From the NCBI RefSeq assembly GCF_045037415.1, contig NZ_CP173440.1: a stretch of 64,000 bases of DNA; one strand, 5' to 3'. This DNA comes from Escherichia coli (lineage in GTDB: Bacteria; Pseudomonadota; Gammaproteobacteria; Enterobacterales; Enterobacteriaceae). The notes below the pieces were generated by a model. That model worked only from the letters and a program-made list of their open reading frames with translations. It was not told the origin of the DNA and searched no databases. The translations under genes were made by a program, and so were the position numbers. This document shows, one piece after another, positions 8,236-64,000 of this stretch (the stretch's first letter is position 1; the number at the start of each line of letters is the position of its first letter).

Positions 8236-9473
8236 CAGTGTTCACCTTCTGTATGGGTTGGGGCGGAGGCTGTGGCTGCCGCCGCCATTGTAGCAAATTG
8301 AAGACGGAGCGAGAGTAGAGCCACGAGCCCCGCAAACACGGCCGATACAACGAGGCCAGGGAGCGGACCAGCAAGGTCGACAAACGCGCCGGCCGCAAGC
8401 ATAACCATGGGCGAGGCTGACAGCATCACCGCCGAGACCGTGCCGAGTACCCGGCCGAGAAGTTCTGGCGGCGTGCGGTTGTAGATGGCAGCGTTGAGAA
8501 TGGGAGAGACTGAGCCGGTCAGCAGTCCCACGAGCGCGCCCAACAACATCAGCACCGGCACGCCTGGCAACTGTGAAAGCAGAAGCGAGCCCACCGCAGA
8601 GCCACAAAATGCCACCGCCAGCCAGTTCTGCGCTGATATCCGGGCGCCGACCGACGCATGAATGGCAATGCCAAGGAGACCACCAGCCCCCATCATTGAG
8701 GAGAACAGCCCGAGCTCTGCTACTTGGCGTCCTGCATCTACAAACAGCGCAGGCATGATGACGCTGCCGTTGGCGCCAACGATGCCCACGAAGATCATCA
8801 CTATACCAAAGAGAGGGCGCAGCAGGGGTTCGCTCCAGAGAAAAGCGACGCCGGCGCGCATGGAGAGAGTCGCCGTCGTGGTCATCGTCCGAGCGGCACG
8901 CGCGGGAAGCACCCACGCGCCGAGCAGACCTGCAAGGACGGAGCAGAACGCCGTCAGCCCGAGCGTTGGCGCAGCGCCAAGCAGGCCGATTGCGGCCCCC
9001 CCAAGGGCCGGGCCACCTAGAATCGCGACGTTCCCGATCACCGCTTTCAGTGACGAGACGCGCTCAACGGAGAGCCCGGCGACGTGGCCGAGTTTGGGCA
9101 GCTCACTGTCCTGCGCGGCCATACCGGGTGCGTCGAACGCGGCACCGAGCACCACGCAAGCGATCAGCCCAGTGTTCGAGAGGGCGCCAACGGCATCGAG
9201 CAGTGGGATGCTCGCCATGGCCACGCCGCCCACCACACCCGAGATCAATGCGACGGGCGCGCGCCCGAACCGATCGACGAGGCCACCACCAACCCACGCG
9301 CCGATGATGGTCGCGATGACGCTGCTAGCGGCCGTGGCGCCCGCCCAGGCCGCGCTCTTTGTATGAGACAGGACGAACCATGGAAGCGCGAGGGCCGCCA
9401 CCGCGTTGCCGATCCGGAAGAGAAAGGTCGCCGCGAACAGCGTCGCGAGCGGGCTATATCGACGTTCGCTCAT
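8235..9473 (-). CDS. mrx: MFS membrane protein Mrx of the mph(A) operon
   Basis: 412-aa hydrophobic product between mph(A) and mphR(A). Confidence 0.9.
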   Translation of the reverse strand: MSERRYSPLATLFAATFLFRIGNAVAALALPWFVLSHTKSAAWAGATAASSVIATIIGAWVGGGLVDRFGRAPVALISGVVGGVAMASIPLLDAVGALSNTGLIACVVLGAAFDAPGMAAQDSELPKLGHVAGLSVERVSSLKAVIGNVAILGGPALGGAAIGLLGAAPTLGLTAFCSVLAGLLGAWVLPARAARTMTTTATLSMRAGVAFLWSEPLLRPLFGIVMIFVGIVGANGSVIMPALFVDAGRQVAELGLFSSMMGAGGLLGIAIHASVGARISAQNWLAVAFCGSAVGSLLLSQLPGVPVLMLLGALVGLLTGSVSPILNAAIYNRTPPELLGRVLGTVSAVMLSASPMVMLAAGAFVDLAGPLPGLVVSAVFAGLVALLSLRLQFATMAAAATASAPTHTEGEH

Positions 9474-10375
9474 TCCGCTGCGGCGAGCTGCGCCTTCGCC
9501 GCAGCGAGGTACTCTTCGTTACCCGAGTCGAGGGCGAAGAGTGCGTAGGTGACCGCCCCGAACGCAAGGCGCTCCGCGATGTGGTGGGCGAGCCGCGGCC
9601 ACACCCGGCCACCGGCCGCTTCATACGTGAGGAGGAGCTTCGCGAGCCCCTCTTCACCAAAGACCATAAGGTGCGCGGCCATGTCGATGGCAGGGTCATC
9701 AACGCGGGCCTCGCTCCAGTCGATCATCCCGCTGACGCGCTCCGTGTTGTCGATGAGCACATGGCCCACGTAGAGATCGCCATGCACCACCACGGAGAAA
9801 TCTGGCCACGACGAATCGTCGTCGAGCCAGCGCTGCCACCGGTGGAGGCGCTTGTCGTTCACCACGAACTCGCGTCGGACGCGGTCAACGTCGTCGGCCA
9901 CCTTCTGACGGGCCTGCGTCGGTGTACGGATGAGCATCCCCGCATCCACGGCGGCGGAAATGGGGACGGCATGCAGGGCGGCGAGCGCGGTCGCGAAGCT
10001 CTCCGCGAAGACCTCCGAGTCCTGCGGCACGACCCAGTCGGGCGTGGACGAACCAGGCTGGATGACCATCGCAGTCGAGTCTTCGAGCATGGGATAGGCA
10101 ACGAGCTCGGCGTTGGCCACGCGCCAGTCCGGCACCGCGAACGGCAGGCGATTCTTGAGCATTGCCAGCACCCGCGCCTCTGGTTCGACCTTCGCGCTTA
10201 CCTCGGCTCGGCGCGGGATGCGCAGCACCCACCGACGTCCATCGTCGACGGTGGCGATCACGATCCTATAGTCGAGCCCAAGCTCATTGACAGTCAGCGG
10301 GCCATGGAGCTTGAGCCCATGTCGGGCTGCAAGTGCGTACAGTTGGGAGGTATCGGCGGTCGTGACTACGGTCAT
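9470..10375 (-). CDS. mph(A): Macrolide 2'-phosphotransferase Mph(A)
   Basis: 301-aa product MTVVTTADTSQLYALAARHGLKLHGPLTVNELGLDYRIVIATVDDGRRWVLRIPRR... Confidence 0.95.
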   Translation of the reverse strand: MTVVTTADTSQLYALAARHGLKLHGPLTVNELGLDYRIVIATVDDGRRWVLRIPRRAEVSAKVEPEARVLAMLKNRLPFAVPDWRVANAELVAYPMLEDSTAMVIQPGSSTPDWVVPQDSEVFAESFATALAALHAVPISAAVDAGMLIRTPTQARQKVADDVDRVRREFVVNDKRLHRWQRWLDDDSSWPDFSVVVHGDLYVGHVLIDNTERVSGMIDWSEARVDDPAIDMAAHLMVFGEEGLAKLLLTYEAAGGRVWPRLAHHIAERLAFGAVTYALFALDSGNEEYLAAAKAQLAAAE

Positions 10376-12146: not shown

Positions 12147-12283
12147 TCAGAATTGGTTAATTGGTTGTAACACTGGCAGAGCATTACGCTGACTTGACGG
12201 GACGGCGCTTCCCTACCCTCATGGCCGCCTCCCAGGAATCGACCCAGGTGCTTATCGTGGACATAATCCTTTACTCATAAATT

Positions 12284-51104: not shown

Positions 51105-51214
51105 GCTTAGAATAATAACAGAAGCTTAACTAAAGCTAAGAAAAGGACAAAAAAGACTAATAAAAGAATAACGTTTTAGTGAGGCCTTGAACTACGGGGC
51201 TCTCAGGCCATCTC

Positions 51215-51346
51215 TGTCAACGCTGGCGGGTATTCTATCATTGCTGGCGGGTGAACCATCATCGCCAGAGGGTATACCATCAACGCTAACGGGGCAATTA
51301 TCATCGCCAGAGGGTAGATTTTATCAACGCCAGCGGGTAATCTGGT
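51215..51346. repeat. Origin iterons (about six ~22-bp repeats with core CAACGCTGGCGGGTA) immediately upstream of repA
   Basis: tcaacgctggcgggtattcta / tcattgctggcgggtgaacca / tcatcgccagagggtataccat / ... / tcaacgccagcgggtaatctgg. Confidence 0.65.
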
Positions 51347-51375: not shown

Positions 51376-52260
51376 ATGGCCAATGATAACAATCAGTTAG
51401 CGCTAATTATCACTGAGCAAGATAAAAGTTCTGGTGAAGTTATACATTTGGTTCCTAACTCAAAACAGAGTATTCAACCTAAATCGCTACTGCGATTGGG
51501 GGTCTTTGTTCCGACAGTCAAGGATGGCAGCGACCCTATGGCACGAGGTCATGTCATCGATGCAACGACTGAGTTGTGTCGTCTTTCTTCTATCGCTGGA
51601 GAGGGGTACGAAAAGATTAGTATTTTTGGGCCCAGGCTTGATATGGATACGGATTTCAAAGTCTGGCTAGGGATCGTGGACACACTCGCCAACACGTTTC
51701 TTGAGCCTGATGGGACTGTTAGGGTCAATTTTATTGATTTTGCTTTCAGTTGTGGGCTTGCTACAAAACGAGTTGATTCAAGGTTAAGGAAACGTTTTAG
51801 CGACTCACTGACACGGATCCAGCACACCCATTTCCAGTTCATCAAAAACTCAACAGTAGAAGGGAAAAAAGTAAAGATCGACATGAGCCTGGTGTCTACT
51901 TCTTACTATGATGAGGGAACCGATGAGGTCATTATCAGGCCAAATCCGGATTTGAATACTCTGTATCGTGTCGACGGGAAGACCCGACTTTACTTAAAAA
52001 TATTGAAGACCCTGTCTCGAAAAGAATCAGCCCAGGCACTGTATCTTTATCTAGTTGAATTACCTGACCATTTTTATCGCATTGGATTCGACCGCTTAAG
52101 AGAACGGTTGCAGCTGACTTCACACAAAGGTGCTCAGAATGCGACGATAAAAAAAGCGTTAGAGCAACTGGATGAAGCTGGTTTTTTAAAATACACGATA
52201 GAAAAAAATCGTGGGGATTATGTACTGGTCATTCTTAGTCGAAACAAAAAAGTTACCTGA
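51376..52260 (+). CDS. repA: Iteron-binding replication initiator RepA (P1 RepA / RepFIB family)
   Basis: 294-aa product with LLRLGVFVPT, GPRLDMDTDFKVWLG, RKESAQALYLY and KKALEQLDEAGFL blocks shared with P1/RepFIB RepA. Confidence 0.8.
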   Translation: MANDNNQLALIITEQDKSSGEVIHLVPNSKQSIQPKSLLRLGVFVPTVKDGSDPMARGHVIDATTELCRLSSIAGEGYEKISIFGPRLDMDTDFKVWLGIVDTLANTFLEPDGTVRVNFIDFAFSCGLATKRVDSRLRKRFSDSLTRIQHTHFQFIKNSTVEGKKVKIDMSLVSTSYYDEGTDEVIIRPNPDLNTLYRVDGKTRLYLKILKTLSRKESAQALYLYLVELPDHFYRIGFDRLRERLQLTSHKGAQNATIKKALEQLDEAGFLKYTIEKNRGDYVLVILSRNKKVT

Positions 52261-52399
52261 GTTATTTAGGTAAAATCAGTCATTTACATTACACACTGAC
52301 TCCAGAGTGTAGTTTCAAGAGTTCGGGTTTTTAGCTAACGCAGCAAACCGCACCAGGTAATTACCCTCCAGGGATGAGGCTTTACACCAGCAGCACCCT

Positions 52400-53520
52400 G
52401 TTTACCCGCCAGCGTTGAGGATGACCACCAGCAGCGACCACGCTTACCCGTCAGCGTTGAGGATGGTCACTGGTATCGCCCCTGTTTACCCGCCAGCGTT
52501 GACGGTGACCACCGACAGCGGCCACGCTTACCCGCCAGCGTTGAGGATGACTACCGGCAGCGGTCCCGTTTACCCGCCAGCGTTGAGGATGACTACCGGC
52601 AGCGGTCCCGTTTACCCGCCAGCGTTGAGGATAGCCACCGTCAGCGGCCACGTTTACCCGCCAGCGTTGAGGATAGCCACCGTCAGCGGCCCCGTTTGCC
52701 CGCCAGCGTTGAGGATGAGCACCGGCAGCGGCCACGTTTACCCGCCAGCGTTGAGGATAGCCACCGTCAGCGGCCACGCTTACCCGCCAGCGTTGAGGAT
52801 AGCTACCGTCAGCGGCCACGCTTACCCGCCAGCGTTGAGGATAGCCACCGTCAGCGGCCACGTTTACCCGCCAGCGTTGAGGATAGCCACCTTCAGCGGC
52901 CACGTTTACCCGCCAGCGTTGAGGATGAGCACCGTCAGCAGCCCCGCTTACCCGCCAGCGTTGAGGATAGCCACCGTCAGCGGCCCCGTTTGCCCGCCAG
53001 CGTTGAGGATGAGCACCTGCAGCGGCCCCGCTTACCCGCCAGCGTTGAGGATGAGCACCGTCAGCAGCCCCGCTTACCCGCCAACGTTGAGGATAAGCAC
53101 CGTCAGCGCCCCCGTTTGCCCGCCAGCGTTGAGGATGAGCACCGGTAGCGGATCCGTTCACCCGCCAGCGTTGAGGATAAGCACCGTCAGCGGTCACGTT
53201 TACCCGCCAGCGTTGAGGATAAGCACCGTCAGCGGTCACGTTTACCCGCCAGCGTTGAGGATGAGCGCCGTCAGTGGATCCGTTTACCCGCCAGCGTTGA
53301 GGATAAGCACCGTCAGCGGTCACGTTTAACCGCCAGCGTTGAGGATGAGCGCCGTCAGTGGATCCGTTTACCCGCCAGCGTTGAGGATAAGCACCGTCAG
53401 CGGTCACGTTTAACCGCCAGCGTTGAGGATGAGCACCGGCAGCGGCCCTGTTTGCCCGCCAGCGTTGAGGATGAGCACCGGTAGCGGATCCGTTTACCCG
53501 CCAGCGTTGAGAATGATTCC
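52400..53520. repeat. Tandem array of ~26 imperfect 42-bp repeats (TTACCCGCCAGCGTTGAGGAT + variable 21 bp); core is the inverse of the origin iteron
   Basis: Periodicity and unit read directly; CCCGCCAGCGTTGA is the reverse complement of the upstream iteron core TCAACGCTGGCGGG. Confidence 0.85.
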
Positions 53521-53702
53521 CCTCCACCGACCCCGGTTACACGCCAGCTTTGACACTACCAGCGACTACAGTCGACATTAAAATCGCCGTGACCTGCTGC
53601 AGCGCGATATACGCCCGGCTGGCATCAAAAGAATTTTAACCAAACAGCACACATCCAGCGGTACAGGAGGCCAGGTTTAACCCGGGGCAGAAACAGATTG
53701 AT

Positions 53703-54770
53703 CTATAGCGACTTGTTAGGATCATTTAGCAAAAACCAATCCCGAAAGGCCTGCTTGCTATCGAAGGTGGGAAGGTTATGTATGGACAAGTTCCAGTTAA
53801 TGATTTTCACTATAAAAGACAAAAATTCAATTTCAGCCTCATTCAGTACACCCTCTCCTTTTTTCCGTATATAGAAGTCATACCATCGTTCGTAGGCGGC
53901 AACATTGATAGATTCAGATGCTTCCAGAAGCCGGGGGATATAATAAACCAGTTCTTCAAAGGCAATACTGCCTTGAGGGATATCAGAACGGCTCAGGCGA
54001 CAAAGAAGGTTAATCGTGGCTCGAAGGTGATGCCACTGCTGTGCCGGGGAGGATGGGAGGGCGTTCATGCTTATCGGAAGTTCATGAGGAATTAAAGCAA
54101 GGATCTGATTTCCACTGGTAGACAGCTCACGCCGGTACTGGTGTAGAGTATGGTGTTTAACCTTCTTCATCATAGGATGGTAGATCCATTTTTTCGCTTC
54201 CTCAGAAACGAAAAGTAACTTTTCTATCGCATCCATCATCTTTATGCCTTCTCCACTCTCACGATATGGAGCGATGATACTTTCAATCCGAACGGCATCG
54301 ATCTCCACCAGCGCCAGCTGGTCTGTTTGCGCTAACAGGTCTGGATTGGGCTGGATATCCTCCGACGTATCATTAATAAATATCCCGATTGTCGTATCGT
54401 TACATATCCCTGTGAGGTCAGCATTAAGGCCACAAACAATCCCACCACCAGCGAGATTTTTGAGGTTAACTATCCCTTTCTCCTTACCCTGCAGAAGATG
54501 AGGGAGAGCAAGGTATTTTTTTTCCTGTATTTTCACCTTTATGTATTTTTTTATATGTTGTAGTGTGAGCTCACTACAAACCCCTTTTACTTCTGTGCTG
54601 TGGCTAAAATGCCATTTTTTATTTTGACCCTGTTTGGCAATCAGGGAGGTCCCACAGATGAGGCAGATACAGTTACACGAAAGCCCATTTTCAACGCTGG
54701 CGATATCAACAATTTTATTTGAATCCGTATCAAATCCAAACGGGATCCATTTTTGTGCATTACGTCGCAT
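53703..54770 (-). CDS. Hypothetical protein with CoiA-like N-terminal zinc-finger/nuclease-related motif
   Basis: 355-aa ORF; N-terminus LSCNCICLICGTSLIAKQGQNKKWHFSHS resembles the CoiA family CxxC...HFxH signature. Confidence 0.45.
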   Translation of the reverse strand: MRRNAQKWIPFGFDTDSNKIVDIASVENGLSCNCICLICGTSLIAKQGQNKKWHFSHSTEVKGVCSELTLQHIKKYIKVKIQEKKYLALPHLLQGKEKGIVNLKNLAGGGIVCGLNADLTGICNDTTIGIFINDTSEDIQPNPDLLAQTDQLALVEIDAVRIESIIAPYRESGEGIKMMDAIEKLLFVSEEAKKWIYHPMMKKVKHHTLHQYRRELSTSGNQILALIPHELPISMNALPSSPAQQWHHLRATINLLCRLSRSDIPQGSIAFEELVYYIPRLLEASESINVAAYERWYDFYIRKKGEGVLNEAEIEFLSFIVKIINWNLSIHNLPTFDSKQAFRDWFLLNDPNKSL

Positions 54771-55259: not shown

Positions 55260-57190
55260 GTGCGCCGGGGAACCGGTTAGAGATCAAGGGGTGAAAGTCC
55301 CCGACCATTGAAGGACCAGCAATCCACAAGGTCCCCGAGTCATGCGTTGCATACCGCGAGGTATGGGGCGAAGCGTTGACAGGGGTGTTGACAGGCCAGC
55401 CATTGAGCCACGAAATGTATATTAAATTACCGGGTGCCGACGTTGTACTGTTAACGGAAGGCAACATCATAGGGTGCGATACTGCGAGTGCCACATGGAC
55501 CCGGCGGGGTCTGAGACCCTGGCATGTCAATACGATCTCTACGCGGGAACCGGGAGATCTCCCCTCTGACCATCTGCCAGTGTCGGAGATGGCCCGCACC
55601 GGGAAGACGAGGAGTCATAGCCGGTGATGTACGGAGAGGAGAAGTCGGACTCGCTCATAGTAGCGGCGAAGCAGGCGAACAACCCGAAAGGAGCGGAGTC
55701 AGTGGAGCGAAGGAGCGGGGCCAAGGGGAACGCGGAACAGCCACACATGCGCCGGACACAGAGCCGGGAAAGCATGTCACAGAGGCTGTCACGCGTGCGG
55801 GAAGCTGCGAAGCAGCGGAAGAAAGAACGGTTTACAGCATTGTTCCACCTGCTGACAGTCGAAGCACTGGAAGCCGCATTCCTCTCCCTGAGCAGGAAAG
55901 CGGCCGCCGGAGTGGATGGCATCAGGTGGATGGACTACGCCGGAAACATGAAGAACAACATAACAGATCTGCACCGGAGGCTACATCAGGGCAGCTACAG
56001 GGCGCAGCCCGGCAGGCGTCACTACATCCCAAAAGCGGATGGAAAACAACGCCCGCTCGGCATCGCCTCGCTGGAGGACAAGATCGTCCAGTATGCGCTG
56101 GTGAAAATCCTGAACGCAGTCTATGAAAACGACTTTATGGGGTTCTCATACGGGTTCAGACCCGGGCGAAGCCAGCACGATGCACTGGACGCACTGGCCA
56201 CAGGGCTGGTACGCACTAACGTAAACTGGGTACTGGATGCCGACATCAGTCAGTTCTTCGACAGGGTGAGCCACGAATGGCTGATCAGGTTCACAGAGCA
56301 TCGGATCGGCGACCGGAGGGTAATCAGGCTCATACGTAAGTGGCTCACAGCCGGGACGTCGGAGGAGGGTCAATGGCGAGCAACGGAGGAAGGCACCCCA
56401 CAGGGTGCGGTCATCTCACCGCTGCTGGCAAACATATACCTCCACTACGTCTTCGATCTGTGGGCGCATCAGTGGCGACGTCGCTATGCCACAGGCAATG
56501 TGGTAATGGTCAGATACGCCGATGACATCGTCATCGGGTTCGACAAACGATACGATGCCCGGCGCTTCCGTATAGCCATGCAGCGCAAACTGAGGGAGTT
56601 CGGACTCACGGTTCACCCGGAGAAAACCCGTCTGATGGAGTTCGGCCGCTTCGCTGCCGAAAACCGTGCCATCAGGGGAAAAGGCAAACCAGAAACGTTC
56701 AACTTCCTCGGGTTCACGCACATCAGCGGGAAAGATCGCAACGGCAGGTTCATGCTGATACGAAAGACCCGCCGGGATCGGATGACGGCAACTCTGAAAG
56801 CCATCAAAGACGGTCTGCGAAGGCGCTGGCATTACTCAATCCCCGAACAGGGAAAATGGCTCAGGAGAGTGGTTCAGGGATACCTGAACTATCACTCGGT
56901 ACCGGGCAACTTCCCCACCATGCAGAAGTTCAGGACACACGTAACAAACCTCTGGCGCCGGGCGCTCAGGCGCAGGAGCCAGAAGGATGATACGACCTGG
57001 ACGAAAGCAAACAAACTGGCAGCCGCATGGCTACCAAGGGTTCGGGTTCTTCATCCATGGCCTGTGGAGCGGTTCACCGCCAGACACCCGAGGCAGGAGC
57101 CCGGTGCGTAAATCGCGCACGCCGGGATCTGTGCGGGGGGTATCCGGTAACGGGTATCCCTACCGCGACATCAGTGAAAAGACATGAGAT
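55260..57190 (+). mobile_element. Group II intron (starts GTGCGCC) encoding an RT/maturase; 3' end approximate (within ~30 bp)
   Basis: 5' GTGCGCC at 55260; intron-encoded protein with RT domains 0-7 and X; ~80 nt follow the RT stop, as expected for domains V-VI. Confidence 0.7.
55624..57111 (+). CDS. Group II intron-encoded reverse transcriptase/maturase, no endonuclease domain; N-terminal start uncertain
   Basis: AAGVDG, PLGIASLEDKIVQ, SYGFRPGRSQHDAL, DADISQFFDRVSHEWL, PQGAVISPLLANIYL and YADDIVI motifs. Confidence 0.9.
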   Translation: MMYGEEKSDSLIVAAKQANNPKGAESVERRSGAKGNAEQPHMRRTQSRESMSQRLSRVREAAKQRKKERFTALFHLLTVEALEAAFLSLSRKAAAGVDGIRWMDYAGNMKNNITDLHRRLHQGSYRAQPGRRHYIPKADGKQRPLGIASLEDKIVQYALVKILNAVYENDFMGFSYGFRPGRSQHDALDALATGLVRTNVNWVLDADISQFFDRVSHEWLIRFTEHRIGDRRVIRLIRKWLTAGTSEEGQWRATEEGTPQGAVISPLLANIYLHYVFDLWAHQWRRRYATGNVVMVRYADDIVIGFDKRYDARRFRIAMQRKLREFGLTVHPEKTRLMEFGRFAAENRAIRGKGKPETFNFLGFTHISGKDRNGRFMLIRKTRRDRMTATLKAIKDGLRRRWHYSIPEQGKWLRRVVQGYLNYHSVPGNFPTMQKFRTHVTNLWRRALRRRSQKDDTTWTKANKLAAAWLPRVRVLHPWPVERFTARHPRQEPGA

Positions 57191-57196
57191 CTTCCC

Positions 57197-58333
57197 ATGA
57201 CAGATAAAACCAAACTGGTTGCTATCTCACGAACCGATGACATAAGTGCTCTGGATGCACTCAAGCTGTTGCGGTTTCGCCGGTACAATACGGCCAGAAG
57301 TCAGTTAAGGGTCACGAGTGTCTGGTCTGCATGGTGCGCCAGGCACGGTCTGACCCCCTTCCCGGTCACAGCGGTTGATGTCGAGCGCTATATTAATGGG
57401 CTGAATGGATCCGTTAAAATGGCGACTATCTCTCATTTTATTGCATGCCTTTCAAGCGTTAACAGCAGCCTGGGTTTTCCAGACTTCCGCAACGTTCTGA
57501 TAAAAGCACTGGTTCAGGTATGGCGGGCGCGGGAGAATGAGAAAAAAATCGTCACCGGTCAGGCCCTTCCATTTCTTATATCCGATCTCAATATTCTTCG
57601 CCGGTCGCTGCATAAAAGCGACGACCTGAGAGACATACGGGACCTTGCAATGATATGGGTTGGGTTTGAAACCCTGCTGCGTAACGTGGAAATTCGAAGG
57701 ATTAAAACCGGCGACCTGAAATGGCAAAATGACACGTCCTGTTACCTTCTGGATGTCATGCGGACCAAGACAAGCCTTTCAAGTAACCTGACATTTCAGC
57801 TCTCACCACAATGCAGTCAGCATGTCAGACGGTTGATTGAGACGGTGGAATACACCGATACCGAAACCTTCGGGCACCGTTTTCTTTTTCAGCCTGTAAA
57901 CATCCATACGAACCGATATTTCCCGTCCACCAGCAGTAAGCTATCCCGGGGTAAATCCATAGACAGGATGCTGGTCAAAGCAGGATTCAGTGAGGGGTTA
58001 CTGACGCAGTTACAGAATGAATCAAAGGTATCACGGGAAGATGTTGGAATGCTGTCCTCTAATTCACTGAACCAGGCATTTGCACGCCTCTGGGGGATTG
58101 CCGGGAAGGTCAGCGACAGTAACCGACAGTCCGGGCGGTACCGGACATGGACAGGACACAGTGTGCGTGTGGGGGGAGCCATAGAGCTGTTTAAGGCCGG
58201 GTACTCACTGGAAAAGATTACCGAGATGGGGAACTGGTCTGATCCAAAGATGGTCTTCCGTTATATCCGTGGATATCTTGCCAGTGAAAAAGCCATGGTA
58301 AGCTTTATGCGTAATCATCTGGACGACATATAG
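57197..58333 (+). CDS. Cre-like tyrosine site-specific recombinase
   Basis: 378-aa product; C-terminus GHSVRVGGAIELFKAGYSLEKITEMGNWSDPKMVFRYIR parallels the Cre catalytic H-x-x-R...W...Y region. Confidence 0.6.
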   Translation: MTDKTKLVAISRTDDISALDALKLLRFRRYNTARSQLRVTSVWSAWCARHGLTPFPVTAVDVERYINGLNGSVKMATISHFIACLSSVNSSLGFPDFRNVLIKALVQVWRARENEKKIVTGQALPFLISDLNILRRSLHKSDDLRDIRDLAMIWVGFETLLRNVEIRRIKTGDLKWQNDTSCYLLDVMRTKTSLSSNLTFQLSPQCSQHVRRLIETVEYTDTETFGHRFLFQPVNIHTNRYFPSTSSKLSRGKSIDRMLVKAGFSEGLLTQLQNESKVSREDVGMLSSNSLNQAFARLWGIAGKVSDSNRQSGRYRTWTGHSVRVGGAIELFKAGYSLEKITEMGNWSDPKMVFRYIRGYLASEKAMVSFMRNHLDDI

Positions 58334-58398
58334 ATTTTACTGAGAGAAACGCCAGCACTCAGCAACATGTTTCTGAGCGCTGGTCACTTATGAACTTT

Positions 58399-58716
58399 TC
58401 AGATATTCAGTTCTTTCAAATCTGTCACAACAAAATCCCCTTTTCCTGAAAGACTGTCAAAATCATCGAGTGTAAATTCATGGGTGTGATACCAAATGAC
58501 CCTGCATGTGGGGCAGGTAACAGGTAACAAATCTTCCGCTAACTTTTCGCTGTTATGGATAACCTCACCCATCTCGTTATGTTCGACAATATAACCACTT
58601 ATGCAAAGGGTTTCGTACCCATGAGCACCGGTAACAATATGGGTTGCTGTTCTCTCACGAATTTCCCCATTAATTTTAATCTGCTCTCGAGTGGTAATCG
58701 TTCTTTTATTATTCAT
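58399..58716 (-). CDS. Hypothetical protein (105 aa, CPTC motif)
   Basis: ORF only. Confidence 0.35.
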   Translation of the reverse strand: MNNKRTITTREQIKINGEIRERTATHIVTGAHGYETLCISGYIVEHNEMGEVIHNSEKLAEDLLPVTCPTCRVIWYHTHEFTLDDFDSLSGKGDFVVTDLKELNI

Positions 58717-58867
58717 GAAAACTCCGGATGATATTTAAAAACGGCTGACATTGCTCCCTGCTTCGGAATAATTGTGAAGGCAGCCAGGAAACCTGAAAAT
58801 ATGTTACCCTGTGCCTGAATCAGTTCTGGTGCGTCTCACGAATGAAAATGAGAGGCGATATCATGGA

Positions 58868-59191
58868 TTATCCTTTTTGAGCAGCTTTTTCTTCTTTTCT
58901 TTGTTTTTTTAATCTCCGTTTTGCCCGGAAATTTGCAACGGTATAGAGAGTGACAGATGCAATGAAATTCACCAGTGCAGCAAACTCTACTGCCAGATTG
59001 ATCACGGCAGGTTTGACAGGAAGCCAGAGTGAGACAAGGAGAAGGAGGAACGATGTGATACACCGTAAGGCGTGTACATTAGAGCCTCCACTCTGGTTAA
59101 TCATACCCGTACCGGAACAGATTTTGTTTGTCAGATAATTTAATCCGAATGCACAAACAGCAGTTACTAACAAGAAAATAGCGTAAGTCAT
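58868..59191 (-). CDS. Hypothetical small membrane protein (2-3 predicted TM helices, basic C-terminus)
   Basis: Hydrophobic segments in the ORF translation. Confidence 0.4.
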   Translation of the reverse strand: MTYAIFLLVTAVCAFGLNYLTNKICSGTGMINQSGGSNVHALRCITSFLLLLVSLWLPVKPAVINLAVEFAALVNFIASVTLYTVANFRAKRRLKKQRKEEKAAQKG

Positions 59192-59946
59192 TTTTCCTCC
59201 AGAGGCTTTAATCTTAATTTGACCACGTTAACCAGTTTCATTACTCCCGCCTCATCCGGTACGAAAATGTAACGACATCTCGGCCATGTCGCGTGTGTAA
59301 ATATCTTACCAGCGGTGTTGATATTCAGAGGCATAAGCCTTTCAGTCTTACTCAACGGCATTTTCTCTATCGGGATCAACCCTGACTTAAAACTTTTTAT
59401 CATTAAGTCGAGAGGGGTTTTACAATCTTTATTGCTCATCGTTTCTGTGTAACGGATCATCCCGGCAATCGTTACCTGTATCGTTCCTATATCAGATTCG
59501 AATTTCGGCAGCACCGGCCAGTAAGGAATTTCAAAATCCACACTGGTAAGCGCCTGTTCGTAACCCTGCTCATTTGTTTCTGCAACCGTTTTAAGGCCTG
59601 GAAACCGGGCGTGCATAAATTTGATAATCTTTACCACATTGGGCGTGCTGGCCTGACGCTGATATATCTCTGGCAGCCATGTGGACGTGGTGGCCCATGT
59701 CGTGGTGCATGCATAAGTTTTTTGCTCCATATGCCATAAAATAGAGGTGTCAGCCAGGAAGTGATGAACAGTCAACAGCTCGGCCAGCAGCCGATCTTCA
59801 TCTGGATGTGTTATGGCATTTTTGAAACAGACCTGTACACGAAAACGTTCTTTTGCAGACAGAAAAGTGTTTCCCCTACTGACGGCCACTTTGTATAACC
59901 TCCTGGCCGGATCAGCTTCACAAATCCCGGTTAAAATCCGGCTCAT
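59188..59946 (-). CDS. Hypothetical protein (252 aa), translationally coupled to the upstream gene
   Basis: Start overlaps the stop of 59943-60902 by 4 bp. Confidence 0.45.
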   Translation of the reverse strand: MSRILTGICEADPARRLYKVAVSRGNTFLSAKERFRVQVCFKNAITHPDEDRLLAELLTVHHFLADTSILWHMEQKTYACTTTWATTSTWLPEIYQRQASTPNVVKIIKFMHARFPGLKTVAETNEQGYEQALTSVDFEIPYWPVLPKFESDIGTIQVTIAGMIRYTETMSNKDCKTPLDLMIKSFKSGLIPIEKMPLSKTERLMPLNINTAGKIFTHATWPRCRYIFVPDEAGVMKLVNVVKLRLKPLEEK

Positions 59947-60902
59947 TTTGACTCCCTGATGACTTCCACCAGCCCTATACGGGGCAGGACAGAACGATAT
60001 TTTTCATTAAAATCGCCGCGCTTCTGCCTTTCACCTTTTACGTAATTTTTTAACGGATTAAACCGGCCCGGTTCGCTGAACAAAATTAATGGTAAAGGCG
60101 CGCGAAAGTTGAGTTTGTACGGCCCATGAACATCATCTGGATCTTCAGGACTGGTGTACCGGATATTGACGTTAACAGCCGGAAAGTTACTTTCCCGGAT
60201 AAGCCGAAATTTTCTCAAATTTTCATCGTCATGACTCACTTCATCATTGAGCAACGACAGCATCATGATTTCTTCGGTTCGTTCCTGTTTCAGCCGTTTA
60301 ACATCCTGTTTTGTCAGACTGATATCCGGCTGGAGCTCAGTTATCTCCCTGCGTAAGCGGTCGATAACCGTTTCCAGCCGGGTAAATTTATGAATGACAG
60401 GGATTTGCCAGGTGAACCCCAGGGAGCGAATTTGCTCAGTAACGATCCGGATATTACGGGACACCTGTAAAGTCACCAGCCACGGGTAAACCTGGTGCAG
60501 AATTTCTGACCGGGAGTCCTGGTAATGAGTGATAGCTTTTACAGCATCAGCAAATTTGTCACGAAGCCGGTTGATTTCACCCACCAGCGACATCACCTGA
60601 TCATGATTGTTTCTGACCACAACGAACCCGGGGTATTTTCGGGTGATTTTGGTTGAATAATGCTCATCCCTGACATGGACTTTATCAACCCGCTGCTGCC
60701 GGTAAATATCCACCAGGGTGTCGACGTCGGGTACCGAATGAGTCACATTGATTTCCTGTGGCGGATTCAACTCCTCAACACTACGGGGCTCCGGGAGCGA
60801 GGCAAGGTAAGATGAGCCGATATCGCTGTGACGGAGTAAACTGTGCAGCTCACCGAGTTTGCGTAGTTGCTCTTCGTTGTAATGGGCAAAGTCAGTATTC
60901 AT
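59943..60902 (-). CDS. Hypothetical protein with weak Tus-like (replication terminus-binding) similarity
   Basis: 319-aa product; C-terminal blocks APLPLILFSE and YRSVLPRIGLVEV resemble Tus PTPLIALIN and LRLIIPRLHLY; from memory, not searched. Confidence 0.4.
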   Translation of the reverse strand: MNTDFAHYNEEQLRKLGELHSLLRHSDIGSSYLASLPEPRSVEELNPPQEINVTHSVPDVDTLVDIYRQQRVDKVHVRDEHYSTKITRKYPGFVVVRNNHDQVMSLVGEINRLRDKFADAVKAITHYQDSRSEILHQVYPWLVTLQVSRNIRIVTEQIRSLGFTWQIPVIHKFTRLETVIDRLRREITELQPDISLTKQDVKRLKQERTEEIMMLSLLNDEVSHDDENLRKFRLIRESNFPAVNVNIRYTSPEDPDDVHGPYKLNFRAPLPLILFSEPGRFNPLKNYVKGERQKRGDFNEKYRSVLPRIGLVEVIRESK

Positions 60903-60944
60903 ATCGTCTCCCGTATCGTATTCCTGAACGTGCGACGGTAATCG

Positions 60945-61352
60945 TTAAACAAACTCTGGTAAAGACTTAAACGTCAGCCATACAGGCTGGCGTCGCCCGT
61001 CCCTGCATACTCTGACGAGGCGATAACGGTTTTTCTCCATCGTGACCAGCCAGTACCCATCGGAGACAGGGCGATCGAGAGTGAACAGTTTTAACCCGTA
61101 AAAACCCATCGAGGTAAACAGACGCCCTTCCCGCTCCCGGAAAGAGACCGTAAAGGACGGGAACAGAAGCCAGAATGCAGTGAAGAAAACATACCAGGTA
61201 TACGGAACAGTCAGTTGTAGAATTTCATAGTTCCTGACGGTAGCTGTGACCAGGCCAAGGCTGAATACAGCAGCAATGCTGGCATATACTTTGAAAGACG
61301 CGCTATCGGAGTTTTTCCAGGTAATACCACTAATACAATGCACTTTGCTCAT
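60945..61352 (-). CDS. Hypothetical membrane protein (135 aa)
   Basis: Hydrophobic segments AAVFSLGLVTATV and WYVFFTAFWLLFPSF. Confidence 0.4.
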   Translation of the reverse strand: MSKVHCISGITWKNSDSASFKVYASIAAVFSLGLVTATVRNYEILQLTVPYTWYVFFTAFWLLFPSFTVSFREREGRLFTSMGFYGLKLFTLDRPVSDGYWLVTMEKNRYRLVRVCRDGRRQPVWLTFKSLPEFV

Positions 61353-61361
61353 CGCCTTGCC

Positions 61362-61826
61362 TCAATGTAGTTGTCTGCGCACTTTCATCCGGGGAAGAAT
61401 TTCTTTCTCCCACAGAGACCTTGCATTCCCATGCCCCCCCAGGAGTTGCATAGCACAAACCCTGTTAAACACAGTTACTTCTTTCCTGATTGCCTGGGTT
61501 TGGCTGTCTGTGAGCTCAATGCATTCCGGTACCAACTGCATAACACCGTTCATCATTTCGGCCTTTATGAGGCCTGGACCGTCTTTTGGGTCGGCCTCAC
61601 AGGATTCCTTTACATTAAACCCGAATGAACAAAGAAGCTGGCCCTGTGCCTTAGGCCCCATCTGGACCCCCCGGCTATCGACGGTAAAGCGGACGATCGC
61701 GTAATCCCCTCCCTGATCGCTGGTTATGTTTCTTACCAGCATGCTGACCGGAGTCATATGAAGCCAGCTGTAGATACCCAAAACAATTTCTTCTTTTAAA
61801 ATCATATTCAATTTACTGGTTCTCAT
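61362..61826 (-). CDS. Hypothetical protein (154 aa)
   Basis: ORF only. Confidence 0.35.
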   Translation of the reverse strand: MRTSKLNMILKEEIVLGIYSWLHMTPVSMLVRNITSDQGGDYAIVRFTVDSRGVQMGPKAQGQLLCSFGFNVKESCEADPKDGPGLIKAEMMNGVMQLVPECIELTDSQTQAIRKEVTVFNRVCAMQLLGGHGNARSLWEKEILPRMKVRRQLH

Positions 61827-61873
61827 TTTCTAATTTATGAATATGAAAACATAAAAAAAAGCTCTGTAAAGCC

Positions 61874-62116
61874 CTAATCTGTAGAAAGCAAAGGTTTGGT
61901 GGCTTTTAACTTGTACTCAATAAAAATTCCGGCTGCATCTGCAGCTGTTATTTCAGACAATATGGCATCAATGATTTCCGGCTCCGTGATGTTATTGAAC
62001 CCCTGCTTACGAACCATCTCTTTAACGCACTCAAAACGTCGGGCTGTTGCCGGGTCGATGACAAATGTATTTAGATGCACATCTTCGCATACGCCAGACG
62101 TCTCATTTAGTTTCAT
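61874..62116 (-). CDS. Hypothetical protein (~80 aa from the internal Met; ORF-track entry extends to 62179)
   Basis: ORF only; the shorter start avoids a long overlap with the upstream gene. Confidence 0.3.
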   Translation of the reverse strand: MKLNETSGVCEDVHLNTFVIDPATARRFECVKEMVRKQGFNNITEPEIIDAILSEITAADAAGIFIEYKLKATKPLLSTD

Positions 62117-62711
62117 GTTCACTCTCCAGATCAGGGATGAAGTCAAAGTTGTACGCAATCGCTTTTTCAGGTGATTCACCCGCGATGAGTTTTAACCAGG
62201 AGTAAGAGTCTTGCTGGTTAAGAAAAATAACGAGATACCCTTCATCTGCACTGTTTCGCTGTTTAATGAATTCAATCTCATTATCCATTACGAAACCAAA
62301 TGGCCCATGTATAACACGCGACTGCTCTGGAAGCATTGAGCTGAACATTGATACCACGACTTCCCTCAGCTCCAAATTTTGGTGCGCAATAAAAGCCACT
62401 CTTTTACCTTCCTTAACGGAAGCTACAATTCGTTTAACACTCGACTTCACGTTATAGCGATACACAATCAACCGGAGCCGGGTCATGCAGAGGAAAATAA
62501 TACATACGCAACTGACAAGAGCCCCATAAGCTGAGCCTTCAATGAACCAGTTAAGGAATCCCAAAACAACCAGTCCCAAAAAAGTGAATATACTCAACAG
62601 GAAAATATAAAAGTTAATTTTACGGTCTTTTGGATACCAGGTTGATGCAACGGCTATGATAGCCATTACGCCGACTAATGCATACATTGAAAGATCAAAC
62701 GGGTTACTCAT
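62103..62711 (-). CDS. Hypothetical protein with N-terminal transmembrane region and ~120-aa cytoplasmic domain
   Basis: 202-aa product; three hydrophobic helices in the first 80 residues. Confidence 0.45.
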   Translation of the reverse strand: MSNPFDLSMYALVGVMAIIAVASTWYPKDRKINFYIFLLSIFTFLGLVVLGFLNWFIEGSAYGALVSCVCIIFLCMTRLRLIVYRYNVKSSVKRIVASVKEGKRVAFIAHQNLELREVVVSMFSSMLPEQSRVIHGPFGFVMDNEIEFIKQRNSADEGYLVIFLNQQDSYSWLKLIAGESPEKAIAYNFDFIPDLESEHETK

Positions 62712-62925
62712 CGATAGTCTCGCAATCGTGCCCAGGGCAGCCCTTGACAGGTGAAAATTCAGGGCATTCTTGAGTAGTTATAAGTCGCTCACCGGCGTTA
62801 AAACGTATTTGTAAGTCACTACGTAAAGCTTCTGCATTCTCCCCCCCCAAAAGGTAGAGCAGAAACTCATCATCAGCCAAAAGTAACTTTTCCAGGTCAT
62901 AGCACTCGTGTTTGTAGTCCATCAT
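62704..62925 (-). CDS. Small hypothetical protein (73 aa)
   Basis: ORF only; start overlaps the downstream gene by 8 bp. Confidence 0.3.
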   Translation of the reverse strand: MMDYKHECYDLEKLLLADDEFLLYLLGGENAEALRSDLQIRFNAGERLITTQECPEFSPVKGCPGHDCETIDE

Positions 62926-63066
62926 TCCTCCTTGAGACTATTAAATCACAGAGGAAAGACAAATTTTCTGTACTAAAGGGCTAAATCTGGAAGATCAAGT
63001 AAATTTTTTGGCAAAAAAAAAGCGCATAAAATATGCGCTCTTTTTTTAATAGACAACAATGGGTAA

Positions 63067-63327
63067 TTAGTTCATACGGAGCATATGGTTCTCAACTCTT
63101 GCTATGAAGTTACTCATTGAGGGAAGGTTTAACTCGTCTCCTATGCGTTTACAGTCAAAAAGTGACTTTGCAGGGGAAAAGTTAAAGCCTTTATTATTAA
63201 CAAACTCTAAAATCTCTTTCAGATAGGAGTTTTTACTTCCGGCACTGAAGGAGTTGAGTAAAGGCCCACGATCTAAAAGTTCACCTGCTGCTTTTTTGGT
63301 CAACTTAATACCTTGTTTACTTATCAT
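63067..63327 (-). CDS. Small hypothetical protein (86 aa)
   Basis: ORF only. Confidence 0.3.
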   Translation of the reverse strand: MISKQGIKLTKKAAGELLDRGPLLNSFSAGSKNSYLKEILEFVNNKGFNFSPAKSLFDCKRIGDELNLPSMSNFIARVENHMLRMN

Positions 63328-63368
63328 CTTACAATGATAGTACTCAAAGCTTTCACTACCTTCCCAGT

Positions 63369-63605
63369 CTAGAACCTGGAGGAGTGAAACTCAGAAAGCA
63401 AAAGCAACATTGTGCCATGATCACGAACAACATATAAAAATTCAAAATTACCATTTATCAACGCTTGCTTAACTAAGCGCAAATCTATCTCTATGTCGTA
63501 GTCATACCAGGGGCTATTAACGAGAGAAGCGGAATGCTTCAGAATGAAGTGTTCCTTAACCCAGTTAAAAACCGATTCGATATCATAATCATAATAAACG
63601 TTCAT
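63369..63605 (-). CDS. Small hypothetical protein (78 aa)
   Basis: ORF only. Confidence 0.3.
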   Translation of the reverse strand: MNVYYDYDIESVFNWVKEHFILKHSASLVNSPWYDYDIEIDLRLVKQALINGNFEFLYVVRDHGTMLLLLSEFHSSRF

Positions 63606-63673
63606 AATTAGCTCTCCTAAAGTAAAAAAGGGAGAGCCCCACAGGGAGCACTCTCCCTGTATGGGTTATGAAA

Positions 63674-64000
63674 TTATTTAATCAAGTCAAAAAATCTTTC
63701 TTCCAGTTTGCCTGGGAAAGCTTCATGACCCTTGAGCATTAATACATCATTCCAATCGACACCTTTCGCACCATCAGGTATATCCAGTTCAGGCAAATGA
63801 ATCTCAACCCGGACTGTTGCTTCAGGATAGCGTTCAGCAAGTAAGGGCTCCATACGGCTCTTGAGAACACGTGCAGCAGACTCACCAGCTGAATTACCGG
63901 TGTTTGGATTTACCCGATCTTTATCTGCCCAAATCGACAATTCAATAAATTGGCAATCAGAAGGTGGCATTAAATACTCAGGTATTTCCAGCATTTCCAT
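63674..64000 (-). CDS. Hypothetical protein (108 aa); start codon is the last three bases of the window
   Basis: ORF-track product MEMLEIPEYLMPPSDCQFIELSIWADKDRVNPNTG... Confidence 0.35.
   Translation of the reverse strand: MEMLEIPEYLMPPSDCQFIELSIWADKDRVNPNTGNSAGESAARVLKSRMEPLLAERYPEATVRVEIHLPELDIPDGAKGVDWNDVLMLKGHEAFPGKLEERFFDLIK

Follow-up and report, generated by a model that had tools for sequence, protein, structure and literature searches.

In Escherichia coli, tus is a lone, autoregulated gene beside TerB, and its product (PDB 1ECR/2EWJ) forms a replication fork trap together with the Ter sites. The plasmids R6K and R1/R100 carry Ter sites without tus, and these sites reportedly work with the host Tus, enforce the direction of replication and limit multimers. 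Chromosomal tus genes have a Ter-like element directly upstream (PMC8707476). Plasmid-borne tus is also known and has been proposed as the source of the chromosomal gene (PMC6549158), and the tus of IncHI2 plasmids is annotated (PMC5923156). The subject of the present analysis is a 5.6-kb block of small genes which fills the minus strand at positions 58399-64000 of a 64-kb stretch of an E. coli contig (NZ_CP173440.1; below, the window, to which all coordinates of open reading frames (ORFs) refer). The block contains a plasmid tus homologue of 319 aa (59943..60902, minus strand), already annotated as such by NCBI PGAP. As opposed to R6K and R1/R100, the plasmid has tus without recognizable E. 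coli-type Ter sites, and as opposed to the chromosomal gene, this tus is located inside an 8-gene operon. The other genes are designated below as g1-g3 and g5-g10, counted from the lower coordinate.

The block is well supported as a part of the backbone of the IncHI family, in the pNDM-MAR/IncHI1B lineage, located after the Tra2 transfer region. With moderate confidence, we read its divergent Tus as a plasmid-specific polar fork barrier, with the other products having accessory roles. Matches to the block were found in 1317 PLSDB plasmids, Klebsiella accounting for 1247 of these; the match spans at least 80% of the query in 573, and numerous plasmids have an identical sequence. Annotation of the block exists already in over a thousand records, where PGAP names Tus. 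The representative plasmid was typed as IncFIB+IncHI1B, MOBH and MPF_F, in agreement with the IncHI/IncFIB-type guess of an earlier reading made from the letters alone (the sequence-only reading). The gene order runs from Tra2 through a UvrD/Rep-type helicase in the TrhI position, an AAA ATPase, a DUF3150 protein, a VWA protein and a toprim-domain protein to g10, the g9-g2 operon and g1. Going upstream from the block on the same strand, there are a 76-aa gene, the VWA, DUF3150 and AAA ATPase genes, three hypothetical genes and the helicase. In IncHI2, the helicase found at the matching position comes after trhN, where Tra2 ends, and is annotated as TrhI, and a complete relative of the pNDM-MAR type has an identical layout directly downstream of Tra2 and trhI.

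Local BLASTP comparison with the IncHI1 plasmids pHCM1/R27 and with IncHI2 (R478-type) demonstrated that the block is collinear with both, gene by gene, at 21-42% protein identity (E 3e-5 to 2e-28). The IncHI1 counterparts include R0182-R0186 and the ORFs upstream of them. Orthologues were found for g10 (174- and 173-aa genes in IncHI1 and IncHI2, E 4e-13 and 1e-12), g9 (89-aa gene in IncHI1, 5e-14), g8 (1e-24 in IncHI1 and 2e-28 in IncHI2), g7 (85-aa gene in IncHI1, 7e-7), g6 (178-aa gene in IncHI1, 4e-18), g5 (IncHI1/HI2, 3e-5), tus (IncHI1/HI2, 4e-18 with 23% identity) and g3 (2e-7 and 4e-10 in IncHI1 and IncHI2, respectively). In both lineages the position of g2 is occupied by a small transmembrane protein, followed by a convergent Cre-like recombinase and hha, and the locus likewise comes after Tra2 and the toprim gene. 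Sequence similarity between g2 and its R27 counterpart R0184 is not detectable; both are multi-transmembrane proteins of ~105 aa with a basic tail at an equal position. The IncHI1 and IncHI2 loci differ from the window lineage in having five extra hypothetical genes of ~300 aa, some of them paralogous, between the g10 and g9 orthologues (L002, 710-5733; L003, 1380-6386), and IncHI1 has an additional 91-aa ORF before tus. The g1 gene is lineage-specific, without a counterpart in IncHI1 or IncHI2. The sequence-only reading had named the gene order in related plasmids as a test of its interpretation; the order is kept across IncHI1, IncHI2, IncHI5-like and IncHI1B plasmids, and the block is therefore a conserved backbone.

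An IncHI5-like relative of ~80% identity (L005, NZ_CP026019) served to estimate selection. The ratio of non-synonymous to synonymous substitution rates (dN/dS) was 0.09-0.21 for g2, g3, tus, g6, g7, g8, g9 and g10; in g1 and g5 the synonymous sites were saturated, and both ORFs are intact. The ORFs of the block are real genes under purifying selection, more than chance ORFs. In the same relative, an extra 352-aa gene (9039-10097) with a weak FtsH/M41-peptidase-like match (E 1.5e-4) is present in the gap between g2 and g1; this gap seems to be a site of variable insertion, the rest of the block being fixed.

The number of genes given by the sequence-only reading, twelve, has to be corrected to 11, of which nine are small and intact, one is frameshifted and one is a fragment, since the ORFs 63369-63605 and 63067-63327 are the two halves of one 179-aa gene (g10). 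The overlaps of 4-14 bp, from which an operon-like organization had been suggested, do exist: 4 bp at g3/g2 and at tus/g3, 14 bp at g8/g7 and 8 bp at g9/g8, with gaps of 9-151 bp at the remaining junctions. The tight packing also holds for g9-g2. A single operon is, by contrast, not compatible with the signals in two of the spacers: the one separating g10 from g9 holds an intrinsic terminator, and the one separating the toprim gene from g10 a hairpin. The terminator (63012..63049) consists of an A-run, a GAGCGCATA/TATGCGCTC stem and a T-run, is nearly 100% conserved and is able to act on both strands. The hairpin (63625..63665, minus strand) is GC-rich and terminator-like, has a T run after it and shows ~93% conservation in a relative with a background identity of ~80%. 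Upstream of g9, a stretch (62926..63011, minus strand) was predicted from the alignment with the IncHI5-like relative to hold a promoter and leader for the g9-g2 operon; the 3′ part of the leader is conserved and terminates in a AAGGAGGA ribosome-binding site. The tightly coupled unit would thus comprise g9-g8-g7-g6-g5-tus-g3-g2, and g10 is probably monocistronic.

The assignment of the Tus homologue to the Tus/Ter-protein family holds over its full length. Residues 13-309 of 319 align to positions 10-293 of the 296-position Pfam model PF05472 (E 7.5e-23), so the sequence-only reading was right about the family and underestimated the match, which it had described as weak C-terminal blocks. The likeness to E. 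coli Tus consists of this shared Pfam family across the full length; the identity is ~21%, and phmmer found no match to the PDB chains. In the alignment with the E. coli reference (sequence identical to 1ECR), the equivalents of E49, K89 and H144 are conserved and I79 is replaced by Val.

In the proposed mechanism, the plasmid Tus would bind one or several plasmid-specific Ter sequences, not of the E. coli type, and act there as a polar anti-helicase barrier. Such a barrier might confine or direct the forks coming from the nearby replicon and might limit rolling-circle replication and the formation of multimers, in this way complementing the adjacent recombinase, which could resolve multimers. 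The remaining products would be accessory factors, dispensable for stability in the laboratory. By analogy with the Ter sites of R6K and R1, a polar fork barrier serving the adjacent replicon seems to be the most economical reading, and in its favor are counted the linkage of tus to the replicon rather than to transfer, as seen in its distribution, the retention of tus in a pLVPK-like plasmid and the presence of the replicon at a distance of 7-9 kb. Tus of the window type (at least 80% identity) was found in ~1310 records and g8 (at least 60% identity) in ~670. When all matching records are counted, the IncHI1/HI2 relatives among them, non-mobilizable plasmids account for 840 of those with tus and 234 of those with g8. 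The pLVPK-like non-mobilizable virulence plasmid NZ_CP064236 keeps part of g6 together with g5, tus, g2, g1, the recombinase and hha beside the replicon, while everything upstream, including g7-g10 and the toprim gene, is replaced by insertion sequence (IS) elements. Its tus differs from that of the window by 8 synonymous and 6 non-synonymous changes (ratio of non-synonymous to synonymous differences per site, pN/pS, 0.22). More generally, tus, g5, g2 and g1 are intact in non-conjugative plasmids, with a pN/pS of 0.07-0.22 where differences exist.

Several results weigh against such a barrier. The first concerns the protein. At the equivalog level the Tus models were not reached (NCBIfam NF002810, 74.5 bits with a cut-off of 323; TIGR02648, 38 bits with a cut-off of 178.3), and three residues of E. 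coli Tus are substituted, F140 by Ser, G149 by Trp and R198 by Gln. The cytosine-6 pocket formed in E. coli by I79/F140/H144/G149 reads V75/S132/H136/W141 here, two of the four (F140 and G149) being clearly different, and the residue set of the Tus-Ter lock is accordingly incomplete. The pocket substitutions are robust because the segment around R139-L150 is well anchored in the alignment, the C-terminal half of which is unreliable. Identical pocket changes are present in the 83%-identical Tus of the IncHI5-like relative, in contrast to the Tus of IncHI1 and IncHI2, which retain the pocket residues I, F, H and G, with F140 and G149 among them. Since the equivalents of F140, G149 and R198 are changed, a canonical cytosine lock in the plasmid Tus is doubtful.

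The second concerns the sites. Searches with GTTGTAAC and the degenerate core GNRNGTTGTAAYKA, with expectations taken from chance or shuffled sequence, gave 19 occurrences of the core in the window for 22 expected and none in L001, and in a complete 184.5-kb relative (NZ_CP027156) there were 7 cores with at most one mismatch compared to 6.75 in shuffles. In the IncHI1/HI2 loci and Tra2 (L002, L003 and L006), both motifs were likewise at chance. Directly upstream of tus no Ter-like element was found. The sole GTTGTAAC of the window (12164-12171) is located just past the stop codon of aph(3')-Ia in a resistance cassette and has 4 core mismatches, which disqualifies it as Ter. The search for Ter sites proposed with the sequence-only reading therefore ended without an excess of GTTGTAAC-type sites in the window, the flanking DNA or the complete relative. 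If the plasmid Tus binds DNA specifically, its site would not be E. coli-like. Two further candidates were rejected: in IncHI1, a GTTGTA-containing element upstream of tus deviates from the core at 3 positions and is missing from IncHI2, and a conserved sequence beside the g10-g9 terminator has no second copy on the plasmid. GC skew, considered as a marker of the terminus, was rejected because it simply tracks gene orientation.

The third concerns dispensability. In R27, single deletions of R0183 (recombinase), R0184, R0185 and R0186 (tus) did not affect stability in E. coli MG1655, and the 5.6-kb deletion Del17, covering the genes upstream, was likewise without loss of stability; the instability of Del16 was traced to incC (PMC4853401). 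Finally, the placement of tus among three membrane-protein genes is not explained by a fork barrier. Of the replication-termination or maintenance module suggested earlier, what stands is the homology of one gene, tus; an excess of E. coli-type Ter sites was not found, and the orthologous R27 genes were dispensable for stability.

The main alternative, an unlikely one, is an accessory module linked to conjugation, expressed with Tra2 or extending it and having its role in transfer or establishment; in this case, the helicase halted by the Tus-like protein would be one of conjugation or of replacement synthesis, and the membrane proteins would act at the envelope. It draws on the position of the block, immediately downstream of Tra2 and a TrhI-type UvrD/Rep helicase and in the same orientation as these, both in IncHI2 and in the pNDM-MAR type, and on the non-mobilizable virulence plasmid, where g7-g10 and the toprim gene were lost along with the tra genes. 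Moreover, a distant relative of g3 is present downstream of a toprim gene in conjugative IncC plasmids, with no tus in the region examined, and the R27 deletion assays covered stability only. What speaks against it is the retention of intact tus, g5, g2 and g1 in non-conjugative plasmids, the two terminators which part the block from the upstream genes and the distance of ~45 kb to the mobI/relaxase (oriT) region, so that the block is not an obvious leading region.

A bolder version of the fork barrier, quite improbable in our estimate, would take the IncHI tus operon as a self-contained machine for replication termination and multimer control and as the ancestral context of the domesticated chromosomal Tus, in which a Tus with a divergent pocket acts on non-canonical Ter sites together with g3 and the three membrane proteins. 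If true, the fork-arrest mechanism would differ from the E. coli mousetrap.

The partner g3 (252 aa; 59188..59946, minus strand), which overlaps the stop of tus by 4 bp, is translationally coupled to it and is the orthologue of R27 R0185, has an N-terminal domain with an RNase H-like fold and a C-terminal RelE/ParE-like domain. In the alignment of its family, from which P0016 and P0079 were dropped as frameshift chimeras, the helix-A Glu (E56) is the one conserved member of the DEDD set, and the equivalents of D10 and D70 read G/T/A and A/Q/H. Because only this glutamate of DEDD is conserved, the RNase H-like domain is probably non-catalytic. The family is small, with 32 matches in a full HMMER scan of 1.84 billion representatives. 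Foldseek recovered the two-domain fold in uncharacterized ~240-aa proteins of many Gammaproteobacteria (TM-scores of 0.6-0.8 over the full length), among them those of IncC plasmids, such as WP_000988732 of pR55, at 12-20% identity. One distant g3-family member of IncC is located downstream of a toprim gene; no tus is adjacent in the region examined.

A toxin-antitoxin, abortive-infection or other defense/anti-defense system in which the RelE/ParE-like domain of g3 and the small membrane and acidic proteins would be the central parts is very unlikely. It would fit the loss of this domain in the virulence-plasmid lineage, where a CAG-to-TAG change at codon 157 of g3 (Q157 stop; NZ_CP064236, ~13425) removes it and leaves the neighboring tus intact, and also the presence of several small acidic products (g1, g7 and g9). 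Against it, PADLOC returned only weak matches, those of the coiled-coil type on Tus (best E 4.6e-4) and one on g8 (E 0.03), and nothing for the other proteins, and there were no PHROG, NCBIfam or Pfam matches apart from Tus. The g3 fold scores are modest and its catalytic residues are not assignable. In addition, the block is a fixed syntenic backbone across lineages at 21-42% protein identity, unlike variable defense islands. For the same reasons, the absence of a significant PADLOC match and the fixed backbone, the uncharacterized membrane-associated system suggested by the sequence-only reading did not hold as a defense-like one.

IncHI backbones contain a symmetric 13-mer, RAAAGTWACTTTY, in extreme excess. 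In NZ_CP027156 (L008-L011) there are 71 occurrences of its 11-bp core AAAGTWACTTT and 33 of the full 13-mer, compared to 0-1 for composition-matched controls, and in the window the 13-mer has 2 copies for 0.00 expected. The palindrome sites of the window are at 54212-54222, 60183-60193 (inside tus) and 62880-62890 (inside the 5′ end of g9). Around half of all copies map to the ~18% of the sequence that crude ORF calling leaves uncovered, and the second repB, traL and mobI have clusters of copies upstream. The motif is also present in IncHI1, IncHI2 and IncHI5-like loci and was not found in one 18.7-kb IncC locus; it looks like the operator of a dimeric plasmid protein. Tus binds an asymmetric site as a monomer. 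A role of the Tus-like protein as a nucleoid protein or general DNA-binding regulator with this palindrome as its target, instead of a fork barrier, is highly improbable. The 71 copies in the relative against 0-1 for control 11-mers, the GTAACT shared by RAAAGTWACTTTY and the Ter core and the single copies at the 5′ end of g9 and within each tus gene examined would agree with it, but the motif is fully symmetric, without flank asymmetry or strand polarity, as fits a dimeric binder, and the plasmid has many other candidate DNA-binding proteins. Its symmetry and lack of polarity led to the palindrome being judged unlikely as a Tus site. The searchable literature contained nothing on the palindrome and nothing relevant on the function of R0184-R0190.

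As for the remaining products, g10 (63067..63605, minus strand; dN/dS 0.14) is a conserved hypothetical gene of 179 aa, which in the window falls into two ORFs of 78 and 86 aa owing to a 1-bp deletion, the loss of a G at 63374. A 71-bp probe across this position found the extra base in 440 of the 442 matching PLSDB records and the exact window version in none (0/442); because no matching record agrees with the window, the deletion is either a private mutation or a sequencing/assembly error. The very acidic 73-aa protein g9 (62704..62925, minus strand; dN/dS 0.21) has a conserved C-x(n)-GC-x-GHDC motif. It is followed by g8 (62103..62711, minus strand), a 202-aa membrane protein with three transmembrane helices and a C-terminal beta-alpha-beta-alpha-beta-alpha-beta domain. 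This soluble alpha/beta domain of ~100-120 aa corresponds to the ~120-aa cytoplasmic domain which the sequence-only reading had assigned to one of three membrane proteins; the AlphaFold2 model (pLDDT 74.6) gave no informative fold match or structural neighbor. All 38 clusters of the g8 family are hypothetical, and a profile search of genome contigs with the g8 alignment for related loci found nothing.

The other two membrane proteins were also confirmed, all three being small and of the inner-membrane type. One is g5 (135 aa; 60945..61352, minus strand), with two hydrophobic segments, weaker ones but kept in the IncHI1/HI2 orthologues, and the other is g2 (107 aa; 58868..59191, minus strand; dN/dS 0.19), with three transmembrane helices and a basic tail; its gene shares 4 bp with g3 at the stop of the latter. 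The rest are soluble: g7 (80 aa, acidic; 61874..62116, minus strand, with the PGAP start at 62116; dN/dS 0.14), g6 (154 aa; 61362..61826, minus strand) and g1 (105 aa, acidic; 58399..58716, minus strand), which follows a gap of 151 bp. Family searches gave no match for g1, g2, g5, g6, g7, g9 and g10, and searches of the block products against NCBIfam, PHROGs, PADLOC and Pfam gave nothing significant except for Tus and the toprim protein. Searches of PDB sequences by phmmer and profiles with Tus, g8, g6, g10 and g3 gave nothing meaningful. Pfam applied to the IncHI1 orthologues and their neighbors resulted in one CoiA_N match in a member, the rest being weak noise. At the upper end of the block lies the 3′ end of the 414-aa toprim-domain gene (63674..64000, minus strand), i.e., its last 108 codons, the start being beyond the end of the window. 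The protein, WP_004181767 (encoded by 1245 nt in NZ_CP040726), has the Pfam domains DUF7146 (2.8e-16) and Toprim_3 (8e-8).

On the other side, the block is met by the convergent tyrosine recombinase (378 aa; 57197..58333, plus strand), an orthologue of the Cre-like R0183 of R27 (36% identity, E 1e-67), which hha follows in all lineages. Beyond the recombinase there are hha, a 355-aa hypothetical gene and, ~7-9 kb from the block, the iteron-flanked repB replicon. The repB gene (51376-52260) has iterons on both sides; three ~21-bp copies are located beside it at 51213-51340, and on its other side a G+C-rich array of about thirty 42-bp repeats (52312-53619) yields long spurious ORFs on both strands. 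Between hha and the recombinase sits a group II intron (55294-57190, the 3′ end being approximate; Rfam RF02005, 186.6 bits) with a 495-aa reverse transcriptase/maturase ORF (55624-57111), absent in NZ_CP040726 and present in NZ_CP027156 together with a second copy elsewhere. The 184.5-kb NZ_CP027156 also has two repB genes (66955-67839 and 157286-158374), ~91 kb apart and almost diametrically opposite, with tus at 58356-59315. Its tus and recombinase are thus near the antipode of the second replicon, which may be a coincidence, given that plasmids differ in size and that the record carries a linear flag.

The results do not establish a new mechanism, and the sole annotated function, Tus, was already known, as was the presence of tus on plasmids. 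What the present analysis adds is the synteny of the IncHI loci, gene by gene, the boundaries of the operon, the substitutions in the Tus pocket, the fold of g3 and the corrected gene count. The plasmids in question are IncHI1B/IncFIB hybrids of the pNDM-MAR type with carbapenemase and virulence genes in Klebsiella, and the maintenance functions of their backbone are potential targets. Overall, the proposed ancestor of the chromosomal Tus (PMC6549158) is found here in a conserved 8-gene operon with a structurally recognizable partner, which provides concrete genes to test.

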